From a virus (taxonomy: Duplodnaviria > Heunggongvirae > Uroviricota > Caudoviricetes): a stretch of DNA of 45,487 bases. This document shows, in pieces, positions 35,901 through 38,900 of this stretch. Made by a program: the position numbers. The number at the start of each line of letters is the position of its first letter. Position 1 is the first letter of the stretch. The DNA is taken from IMG/VR virus record IMGVR_UViG_2872185964_000010. The stretch is one strand, 5' to 3'.

Positions 35901-38900
35901 AAGTCTTCATCATTCAGACGAGTGAGGGCTGGGACAGTAGCCATGATGGCAGCCTCCTTGATCGGTGAAATACTTCCACCACCGGAAACGCCAATTTCGC
36001 TGGTGGTGAACTGAACGGGGTTGGCGTAACCGGTGATCAAGGAAACCGGCGCATCTTTCGATGCCCCCGCCCAGCCCACCATAACTTTGATGTGAGCAAA
36101 TGCGGACGATAAAAAAGACGCTGGCGCGTCATATATCGCCTTGATCAATTCCAGGACGCCAATCCCGGCACCCGCTTTATAAGGTGCCTGAACAGTGTAA
36201 CGTCCCGGAATGGCAGAATCAATGTGCTGGTGGTCCTTCACACTCAACAAAATCACGCTTGAATTTCCACAAAGGACTAAAGCACTCATGCGGGTAGTCT
36301 TTGCGAAGATAGATAACGCGCTGTGTTTCTGGCTCCCAACGAATAACATGAACATAAAGTCCTCTTCCGTCACGAAACCAGCGGTTAAGTTCCTGCACAA
36401 CTCGCCCCCACAGTCAGGTAAAGTTCTCTGTGGTTACTTACAGCCAGGAGATTTGGTAATCTGCATTCATGCCGTAACAACAGGTGTTCAGCGACGCTGA
36501 CCACCAGCTGTTGCGACAAACGGTTATTTGCCGTTAAACTGTTCATGCGTTAGTTTCTCCACAGACACAAAACGCCACGACGCCCGGAGCTGCACACTCG
36601 CGGGCGTCACTCTTTTCTGGAGCGCAAAAGATTTTGTAGACCAGTGCTGCATGCTCCTGGAGCTTCGAAATTGACAGATACAACTCATCATTAATTGCTG
36701 TCTGCTCGTGTGGCTCCACTACCCCATCTTCGATTGCCGAACGAATCTGCTTTGAGTAACTCCCGATCTGTTCGATGACTTCCAGCAGGCGCTGGTTTAT
36801 ATCGGCGTTCTCTACTTCCTCAATTTCAGGAAGCGATACAAACACCCCACCAGCAGACTGTGCGACAGCATCCGCAATGTAGTGAGTGCCAGCCGCGCGC
36901 TGTAAAATCATTGCCCATCCCAGCGGGAAAATCTGATCGCCATCTGCACGAAGGCGGTTGAATAAAGCGTTCTCTGTTACATCTAGCCACTCAGCAGCTT
37001 CAGCGTACCCCCCGGCAACGCCGCGATAGTTTTTCTGACAGCTTTCACGTACCACTCAGGCTGTTTTTCTACTTTCCAGTGATGCTTACCCACGGTTAGC
37101 CTCATCGTTCTGTGGTTAAAAATTGAAGGTGTTCTGTTAATCTTTCGGATAGATATCCGGTCTTAAGTCAGATTTCGTAATTGCACCTGACGTGCATTGC
37201 TCAAGTTTTTTAGCCAGCACAAAACTGGCTTTTTTATAACCATTGAAAACCAGCCGTAAATAGCCTGGTGTTGAGCCAACTTTTCCGGCCAACTCGCCCT
37301 GCTGTTCTTTGGTTAAAGAGTCCCAATACGCTTTCATACAATATGTACCTCCGATATACATATTACATGATTGAGATGAACCTTCAAGATACTTGTACCC
37401 TATCGGTACAAAGGTTTTAATTTCGTTATGAAAACAGTCCATGACATCCGGCGGTCTAACGCCAGAAAACTGAGAGATGGTGTTGGCGGGAATTCTTCCT
37501 TTGCCACCATGATTGATCGCGAGCCAACCCAGACCAGCAGGTTTATGGGAGATGGTGCTACTAAAAATATCGGTGACAGCATGGCACGGCACATCGAAAA
37601 ATGTTTCGACCTGCCTGTCGGATGGCTTGATCAAGAACACCAGACAACAAACATCACAAAAAAACCTGATGTTTCAATTACTAACAAACAAATAACGTTA
37701 GTCCCTGTCATATCATGGGTACAGGCCGGAGCATGGAAAGAAGTTGGCTATTCTGAGGTTGATTTGAGCACAGCAGAAACTTATCCCTGCCCTGTACCCT
37801 GTGGCGAAATGACTTATATCTTGCGGGTGATTGGTGATTCAATGATTGATGAGTACCGCCCGGGAGACATGATTTTTGTAGATCCTGAAGTCCCTGCCTG
37901 CCACGGTGACGACGTTATTGCATTGATGCACGATTCAGGCGAAACCACCTTCAAGCGGTTGATAGAAGATGGAACACAGCGTTATCTCAAAGCATTAAAC
38001 CCAAACTGGCCTGAGCCTTACATTAAGATTAACGGTAATTGCTCTATAATTGGTACAGTGATTTTCTCGGGAAAACCAAGAAGATACACAATAAAGGCCT
38101 AATCAATATTTATGAACCTGCTTCGGCAGGTTTTTTTATGCTTGACAATGTACCTATTAGATACATAATGTATCTAAAAGAAACATAACACAGGCAAGAT
38201 TAAAACAAAATTTGGTTGTAACACGGCGTATGGCACATGCGTCGTTAGCGGTCTGGTGACGTTAAAGGGGACAATCCACTCCTTGCTCGAGCAAACAAAC
38301 CAGGTAGCCGGAATGTGCAAGTCAATGATGATGCTGATAAGACGCCTAACCAGCGTGGCGATTCGGTTTGACGCCTGGGAAGAGACCAGGGTGCAACGAT
38401 GAGGGCATTTATGGAACCGCGACAAAGTGTGGTGCCGTAACTGGCTAAGTGCTCTCAGCGTTGTGGTAATCCGCGAAATGGCGCGGCGGTAAGTATGGCG
38501 GGGTTACTCTTTCCCCGTTGAGGACACCGGATTGTCAGGTTGACCATACGCCTGAGTGACAACCCCACCACAACAGCCACTGCTTTGGCGGTACCAGTTT
38601 GTACACTTGCTTCCGGCTGGTACCGCTCTTTTTACAAAACAGAGAAGAGCATCACCGGACGACGGGCTCATAACCCAATCCATCCGGGCGGCTGCCACCG
38701 CAGGTGTTCTTCTCTGTTTTGTGGAGAAACCAACCGACCTTGCAGGGTCGATATGATTAGGAGCAGAAAAATGGCTAGCGAACGCAGTACTGATGTGCAG
38801 GCATTTATTGGGGAGCTGGACGGCGGCGTATTTGAAACCAAAATCGGCGCAGTTCTCAGTGAAGTCGCTTCCGGTGTGATGAACACGAAAACCAAAGGTA

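Follow-up and report, generated by a model that had tools for sequence, protein, structure and literature searches.

A mosaic of exchangeable structured RNA modules forms the early-left leader of a lambdoid prophage of Escherichia coli

The window analysed here is a stretch of 45,487 nt of viral DNA (IMG/VR record IMGVR_UViG_2872185964_000010), and the element under study is the leader of about 600 nt that separates a cI-like repressor gene from the first early-left gene. The repressor gene, ymfK, occupies positions 37428-38102 on the plus strand and encodes a LexA-family protein with a Peptidase_S24 match (Pfam PF00717). A cro-like gene lies on the minus strand at 37137-37340, and a terminator scan placed the intrinsic terminator of the repressor gene at 38114-38133 on the plus strand (an 8-bp stem, then a T-tract). 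At the other end of the leader, yfdP starts with an ATG at 38771 on the plus strand and is followed by yfdQ and yfdR. A 701-nt query around the leader was compared with chromosomes and phage records. Many E. coli chromosomes were 99.7% identical to it, which identifies the window as an E. coli prophage, and the prophage is a lambdoid one of the SfV/cdtI/mEp460 type. Viable temperate phages also carry the leader at 97-99% identity, namely twelve Stx2c-converting phages, Ayreon, cdtI and 2H10. In RefSeq the flanks are annotated as ymfK and yfdP and nothing is annotated in between. We report that the leader is a mosaic of RNA modules, termed A, B, C1 and C2, that have been shuffled independently of one another. 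K-12 CPS-53, which has yfdP, lacks the leader and shares only the last 20 nt before that gene; K-12 transcript maps are consequently uninformative for modules A and C2.

Scanning of positions 36900-39300 for promoters returned a single strong match, a pL-type sigma-70 promoter on the plus strand at 38142-38169 (TTGACA, 16 nt, CATAAT; 11/12 consensus matches). Its -10 box is overlapped by an operator-like palindrome, to which no strand is assigned, with 19-nt arms that are 84% complementary (38148-38166 with 38168-38186). The palindrome is similar to the TGTACCCTATCGGTACA palindrome on the cro side (37393-37411), and the good promoter with operator palindromes noticed in the first-pass annotation is therefore real at the sequence level. 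From the position of the promoter, transcription is predicted to start near 38176. No promoter-like site was found in the interior of the leader, so that the leader RNAs would depend on pL. When folded, the plus strand of 38176-38772 reached -226.6 kcal/mol (z = -5.79), a stability equalled by none of 100 shuffled sequences, and the minus strand gave z = -3.43. In what follows, shuffles were used for z-scores and for module B, and the control for base pairing in alignments consisted of sliding the pairing partners; all module coordinates refer to the plus strand.

Module A is a structured RNA of 255 nt at 38210-38465. Its boundaries follow from the tRNA genes that abut both of its ends in other phages: in 30 P1-like loci the 3' end of tRNA-Ile(CAU) lies 2 nt before the position equivalent to 38210, and in 25 phiV10-like loci tRNA-Arg(UCU) starts at the equivalent of 38464/5. 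The predicted fold consists of a 5' rod of ~100 nt (38225-38323), a hairpin H3 (38342-56) whose loop forms a pseudoknot with 38365-68, a hairpin H4 (38374-90) with the invariant loop GAAGAGA on a covarying 5-bp stem, and a long 3' hairpin (about 38405-38464); two of the hairpins covary. In 13 non-redundant sequences, the 42 pairs of the module were paired in 98.3% of cases compared to at most 42% with slid partners, and 9 pairs showed compensatory changes. Module A was found in 1562 of 5426 complete E. coli genomes (29%) and is annotated in none of them. As a separate observation, the 32 nt at 38239-38270 within module A are 100% identical to a CRISPR-annotated sequence of E. coli 2012C-4502 (NZ_CP027440.1, 1868888-1868919), which looks like a spacer of type I-E length directed against this conserved non-coding module.

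Module B (38460-38574) is a pseudoknotted domain whose homology to the 5' part of the 190-nt form of DicF was demonstrated by comparison with the Qin prophage of K-12. Positions 38460-38582 are identical to Qin (L287 2751-2873) at 110 of 123 positions (89%, E = 2e-42), and the Qin homologue is located directly upstream of dicF (L287 2883-2935). Two forms of Qin DicF have been described, one of 53 nt produced by an RNase E cut and one of 190 nt with an RNase III-cut 5' end (bioRxiv 10.1101/2023.04.14.536235). As the 190-nt form starts about 5 nt 5' of the B homologue, module B is the body of the long form of DicF. The alignment of 22 non-redundant sequences supports a fold with a closing helix, two hairpins and a pseudoknot between a loop and an upstream strand; its elements are helix P1 (38460-67 with 38567-74), helix P2 (38471-75 with 38482-86), helix P5 (38529-37 with 38557-65) and the pseudoknot itself (38488-98 with 38544-52). 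The 31 pairs were 96.8% paired versus at most 54% when slid, 12 of them were compensatory, and 0/500 shuffles reached this value. Furthermore, the conservation of module B exceeds that of DicF itself.

At the position of DicF, the window carries module C1 (38584-38633), a terminator hairpin of -21.2 kcal/mol (z = -3.97). The 10-bp stem followed by a T-tract reported in the first pass was recovered exactly, 38588-38597 pairing with 38617-26 ahead of UCUUUUU, the U-tract covering 38629-33. The C1 segment TTTGGCGGTAYCAGTTT matches nucleotides 13-29 of DicF at 16/17 positions and at an equal distance from B, and the motif common to C1 and DicF is UUUGGCGGUAYCAGUUU. In all 96 of 96 loci containing B, the module was followed by a short variable linker and then by a variable hairpin with a T-tract, K-12 DicF being one variant and C1 the commonest. 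In P1, the B homologue and its own terminator correspond to the region annotated "dicF-like", located right after the ban promoter controlled by the P1 repressor C1. Judged from these sequence comparisons, the conserved unit is module B together with a diversifying terminator hairpin, of which canonical DicF is one allele. A small RNA, one of several options considered in the first pass, is thus supported and can be made specific: the T-tract hairpin stands at the DicF position, after the 5' domain of the 190-nt precursor.

The 5' seed of DicF was also encountered outside DicF. A 12-mer of this seed, TCTGGTGACGTT, forms part of the module A rod (38252-63) and is engaged in base pairs there; the estimated number of such matches expected by chance is ~0.0015. 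Elsewhere, ATTTTCTGGTGA lies just 3' of module A in P1 (L005 2703-2714), and a further hairpin variant linked to B contains TTTTCTGGTGA. Immediately upstream of module B in another prophage (L166 4506-4632, minus strand) lies a tRNA-like sequence of 127 nt that scores 40 bits with the Rfam tRNA model, contains a large insertion and has the loop UUCAUAA with its CAU triplet; CAU-type tRNA-like elements seem to recur in such leaders.

Module C2 (38634-38722) is a tRNA-like three-way junction. Its outer helix joins 38634-38653 to 38703-38722; the long-range stem recognised in the first pass therefore exists, and its length, given there as 12 bp, was understated and is 20 bp. According to the consensus structure the helix encloses arm 1 (38655-38687) and arm 2 (38688-38701). 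The element folds to -45.5 kcal/mol (z = -7.27), and in 22 non-redundant type I sequences, the type found in the window, 33 pairs were 96.8% paired compared to at most 49% when slid, with 9 compensatory pairs. The tip of arm 1 (CGGGCUCAUAACCC, 38663-38676) is the anticodon stem-loop of tRNA-fMet: it is identical to metZ at 14/14 nt, including the three consecutive G-C pairs and the CUCAUAA loop. This sequence is identical or nearly so in 22/22 type I sequences and in the species matches, the G-C pairs and CAU being unvarying in the 22. Within Enterobacterales, where C2 is found in at least 15 genera, representatives of 25 species share an invariant core of 22 nt around the tip.

Two contexts of C2 were distinguished. 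Type I copies are always located just 3' of a terminator hairpin. On their 3' side come GGAGAA, a small GC hairpin and then the first early-left gene, whose product is YfdP-like in some loci and RdgC-like or different in others. In the window, this 3' flank (38723-38770) comprises GGAGAAAC at 38723-30, the GC hairpin (38735-39 with 38746-50) and the Shine-Dalgarno (SD) sequence AGGAG at 38759-63; GGAGAA and the GC hairpin follow nearly all type I copies regardless of the downstream gene. Type II copies, found in Klebsiella-type phages, start 6 nt after a tRNA in a late-operon tRNA array, are ~70 nt long and D-armless, and have an extended anticodon-like arm. Their outer stem is a 6-bp acceptor-like helix and an NCCA end, GGCC(A/G)CCA, was present in 11/11 variants. 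The window copy has the 20-bp helix and no CCA. In the Klebsiella-phage tRNA arrays, type II C2 would be a processed, CCA-ended, D-armless tRNA-like molecule. With default settings ARAGORN found no tRNA in the window, and with relaxed settings it made low-scoring calls without anticodon and a spurious tmRNA, none of them at C2; the Rfam tRNA model matched neither type I nor type II C2 at E <= 10. An attP-type tRNA fragment was considered for C2 and rejected, as only the anticodon arm is present and the site is at pL and not near int.

The constant arrangement around type I C2 bears on another explanation, in which C2 acts in cis, together with the GGAGAAAC motif and the small hairpin, as an element of the 5' untranslated region (UTR) controlling the translation or stability of the first early-left gene. 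The E. coli thrS operator is an mRNA leader hairpin that mimics a tRNA anticodon arm, and MetRS, or IF3 with the 30S subunit, could bind the leader in this manner. The position of C2 just upstream of the first gene is constant over 25 species, GGAGAA is invariant immediately 3' of the helix, and the anticodon arm is that of tRNA-fMet; these points favour a UTR element. However, the downstream gene varies and 30-60 unconserved nucleotides separate C2 from the SD sequence, the type II copies are free-standing in tRNA arrays and not in UTRs, and modules A and B would be left unexplained. We therefore regard a cis-acting element as unlikely. The segment equivalent to 38723-38752 was also inspected in about 40 loci, in which GGAGAA stands 3' of the C2 helix and the GC-rich hairpin has the loop (U/G)GCA; in these loci no start codon was found at SD distance from GGAGAA. 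A mini-ORF (open reading frame) after C2, (G/A)UG-GAG-AAA, was rejected as a leader peptide since its length ranges from 3 to >14 codons and its frames are not conserved.

The modular nature of the leader was demonstrated in two ways. Firstly, when the leader was compared with phage records by BLAST, the breakpoints of similarity were sharp. Secondly, three motif scans of IMG/VR yielded 280 loci, and the module architectures, compiled for 286 loci, contained the modules singly and in many combinations. Module A alone was found in 41 loci, B alone in 39 and C2 alone in 36. The complete A-B-C1-C2 order of the window was present in about 60 loci, A-C1-C2 in about 22, C1-C2 as in SfV in about 40 and B-C2 as in Salmonella phage F1055 in 5, while B and A were far apart in 19 loci (P1). 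In phiV10-like phages, the unit order is A, tRNA-Arg and a C1-like terminator. One such unit (L004) ends in a hairpin at 2862-2907, TTGGCGGTGATGG...CTATCACCGCCCTTTTTACAG, whose flanking motifs are the same as those of the C1 and DicF terminators, and the terminator type itself may thus be a shuffled cassette. In Rfam 15, no model matched any module, either over the whole window at gathering thresholds or over 38050-38850 at E <= 10. In the literature searched, no paper text contained any of three diagnostic strings of the modules, and no description of A or C2 was found. Modules A and C2 are thus undescribed RNA motifs, and B-C1 is a variant of the known DicF kind.

The first pass had seen no convincing ORF in the leader and had considered that an error might conceal a gene. 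A coding sequence on one or the other strand, masked by a sequencing error or by mis-annotation, could be reconciled with the hypothetical proteins annotated here in some phage records and with two PHROG matches to leader ORFs, phrog_3651 on the ORF at 38504-38698 (minus strand) and phrog_33599 on the ORF at 38556-38756 (plus strand). Length differences between leader variants (+33, +36 and +69) are also all multiples of three; the periodicity test was nonetheless negative. In substitutions no 3-base periodicity was detected in the three modules aligned, A1, B and C2 (p = 0.28, 0.69 and 0.72, respectively), in contrast to the yfdP control with 34, 27 and 130 changes at codon positions 1, 2 and 3 (p = 2.5e-23). 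None of the four longest leader ORFs had a Pfam match, and ORF lengths and frames were not conserved. An error is opposed by the 99-100% identity of the sequence in hundreds of independent genomes, assemblies and phages, and module B lies within a mapped non-coding RNA in K-12. A masked gene is thus highly improbable and no coding signal is present in the leader, as the blank RefSeq annotation already indicated. Because codon periodicity is missing and frames are inconsistent, phrog_3651 and phrog_33599 are probably spurious ORF families over conserved structured RNA, that is, annotation artefacts.

The association of the modules with tRNA genes, together with the lack of any tRNA call by ARAGORN or Rfam in the leader, could also be expected if the leader were made of decayed tRNA gene remnants or of junk DNA without function. 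Conservation of 74-99% across genera, with compensatory changes that keep the helices, argues against decay, as do the invariant 22-nt C2 core across Enterobacterales and the better conservation of B compared to DicF; we consider such remnants very unlikely.

We favour, with somewhat better than even confidence, a reading in which non-coding RNA cassettes are arrayed in a repressor-controlled, polycistronic leader at the head of the early-left operon, the array is processed, and C1 serves as an attenuating terminator. Upon loss of the cI-like repressor, the pL-type promoter would transcribe the array in the order A (255 nt), B and C1 (the counterpart of 190-nt DicF) and C2. Host RNases would be expected to cut the units into stable small RNAs, by analogy with the Qin dicBF transcript: RNase III would cut the base of B and RNase E the linker, and, in other phages, junctions between a module and a tRNA would probably be processed by RNase P or tRNA-processing enzymes. 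Processing has been shown for the Qin homologue of B-C1; for A and C2, release is suggested by their tRNA-flanked and NCCA-ended relatives. As a strong intrinsic terminator, C1 would end most transcripts and form the 3' end of the B-C1 RNA. It would thereby attenuate yfdP-yfdQ-yfdR, so that only read-through transcripts carry C2 and the genes. Like DicF, the array RNAs most likely have host functions as their targets. For B-C1 it is the precedent of DicF that points to the host, and for C2 the identity with the initiator arm suggests that it engages something that recognises tRNA-fMet. A bolder proposal is that C2 may be an early-made phage mimic of the initiator-tRNA anticodon arm, a decoy or sponge that occupies some host factor able to recognise tRNA-fMet, and that C2, with type II copies as processed CCA-ended tRNA-likes, and module A may represent new families of phage RNAs travelling as cassettes with tRNA genes. 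Candidate targets of such a decoy are a VapC-type toxin cleaving the initiator anticodon loop in abortive infection, MetRS, IF3 and the 30S P site. We regard this proposal as speculative, and it is held with much less confidence than the processed array.

Several points weigh against the processed array. The transcription start, the processing, the efficiency of termination and all trans-acting functions enter it by inference. The covariation partly reflects two or three clades and not many independent events, and the 5' rod of module A is largely invariant and hence neutral on pairing. The Rfam DicF model (RF00039) missed C1, in the window at gathering score and in 38050-38850 at E <= 10; in a control it scored K-12 dicF at 76.7 bits, and among 14 B-containing loci it recognised only the K-12 copy. 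The single-stranded 20-nt 5' seed of DicF, UUUCUGGUGACG, is absent between B and the C1 hairpin, and the targets of C1 therefore probably differ from those of DicF. RNAduplex predictions with the ftsZ leader, scored against shuffles, gave z = -1.1 to -1.5 for DicF and C1 alike and, in a first run, -1.3 for DicF and +0.4 for C1; they were non-discriminating even for genuine DicF. Finally, a strong terminator, C1, stands upstream of all early-left genes in a phage that has no N gene.

This last point leads to the main rival, in which the leader contains a new processive antitermination RNA, analogous to put and not homologous to it, and A or C2 binds the elongating RNA polymerase, allowing it to pass C1 and later terminators. 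Antitermination would explain how C1 is passed without N. The absence of an N-like Arg-rich ORF, noted in the first pass, was upheld, the first gene being yfdP, and type I C2 is always found between a terminator hairpin and a first gene of variable identity. Hairpin H4 of module A, with its invariant loop GAAGAGA, loosely resembles a boxB-type hairpin. In addition, LLS phage, a yfdP-type phage without N described in 2025, carries C2, and its authors, having found no N, guessed at a put-like RNA mechanism (PMC12315714). The specific suggestions of nut-like or HK022 put-like elements made in the first pass were not borne out. A covariance model based on seven put sequences (putL and putR of HK022, one from HK639 and four more) recovered the two HK022 sites, with 96 bits for putL and 47 bits for putR. 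With filters off it gave no match in 38142-38770 at E <= 10, and blastn of the leader against the HK022 immunity region gave no match either. The only boxA-like string, CGCTCTT (38624-30), is accounted for by the terminator, of which it is the 3' arm; other variants do not conserve it, and no N-like ORF accompanies it. Furthermore, C2 is downstream of C1 and cannot suppress it. In P1, the first ban-operon terminator is passed long before module A is reached; in phiV10-like phages, A is the first part of a short unit, followed by tRNA-Arg and a terminator, in which there is nothing to antiterminate; and type II C2 lies in late-operon tRNA arrays and has an NCCA end. Antitermination thus fits poorly with the contexts of A and C2 elsewhere, and we give it only a small chance of being correct.

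These comparisons change the status of DicF. DicF has so far been regarded as a 53-nt oddity of defective prophages, and searches of phage databases had found no DicF homologues (PMC5069750). The presence of B with a variable terminator hairpin in viable phages (P1, mEp460, cdtI, Ayreon and the Stx2c phages) makes DicF one allele of a diversifying family of phage small RNAs. Modules A and C2 are common RNA motifs that are unannotated and outside Rfam 15. A copy of the initiator anticodon arm in an early transcript suggests that phages interfere with translation initiation or with tRNA-targeting defence, and the leader bears on the expression of early-left genes in lambdoid phages without N.

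Other RNA elements were detected in the window with Rfam. On the minus strand at 35999-36187, C4 antisense RNA (82 bits) and isrK (64 bits) are adjacent; this pair is the P1/P7-type control module of the immI antirepressor, here within a lambdoid prophage. In two loci of the survey (L140 and L224), isrK and C4 are preceded by module B, which shares their strand. IS009 was matched at 2117-2315 on the minus strand (223 bits), and the ALIL frameshift pseudoknot of IS3-family elements at 41823-41939 on the plus strand (116 bits), which suggests an insertion sequence inside the early-left region.

The leader can be compared with several known systems. It resembles put of HK022 and HK639 in being a structured RNA just 3' of an early promoter in a lambdoid phage without N. 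In contrast, put, which suppresses downstream terminators in cis, consists of about 70 nt and two stem-loops whereas the leader comprises three unrelated modules over about 550 nt, and these modules are also found outside lambdoid phages and in late operons. Unlike in the lambda N/nut system, the first pL gene does not encode an Arg-rich N, and H4, whose loop has 7 nt, bears only a loose likeness to boxB. C2 shares with the thrS operator a leader hairpin reproducing the anticodon stem-loop of a specific tRNA; it differs in that it mimics tRNA-fMet, is phage-borne, is embedded in a three-way junction and has free-standing tRNA-like relatives. Species 1 and 2 RNAs of T4 are stable non-tRNA RNAs in phage tRNA clusters, and C4 RNA of P1 and P7 is processed by RNase P. 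Like them, the modules are structured RNAs co-transcribed with, and abutting, phage tRNA genes, and the NCCA end of type II C2 suggests RNase P-type processing. They have no sequence relation to these RNAs, however, and in the window they are without flanking tRNAs. The closest counterpart is the Qin locus of DicF, an Hfq-binding RNA. Both are repressor-controlled early operons beside a cI/cro-type switch, both contain the pseudoknotted B domain at 89% identity, and in both a Rho-independent terminator hairpin that starts with UUUGGCGGUAYCAGUUU comes after B and precedes protein genes reached by read-through. C1 differs from DicF in its loop and 3' arm and in having no single-stranded 20-nt 5' seed, and the surroundings have been exchanged: module A replaces the ydfABC genes upstream, and C2 and yfdP replace dicB downstream.

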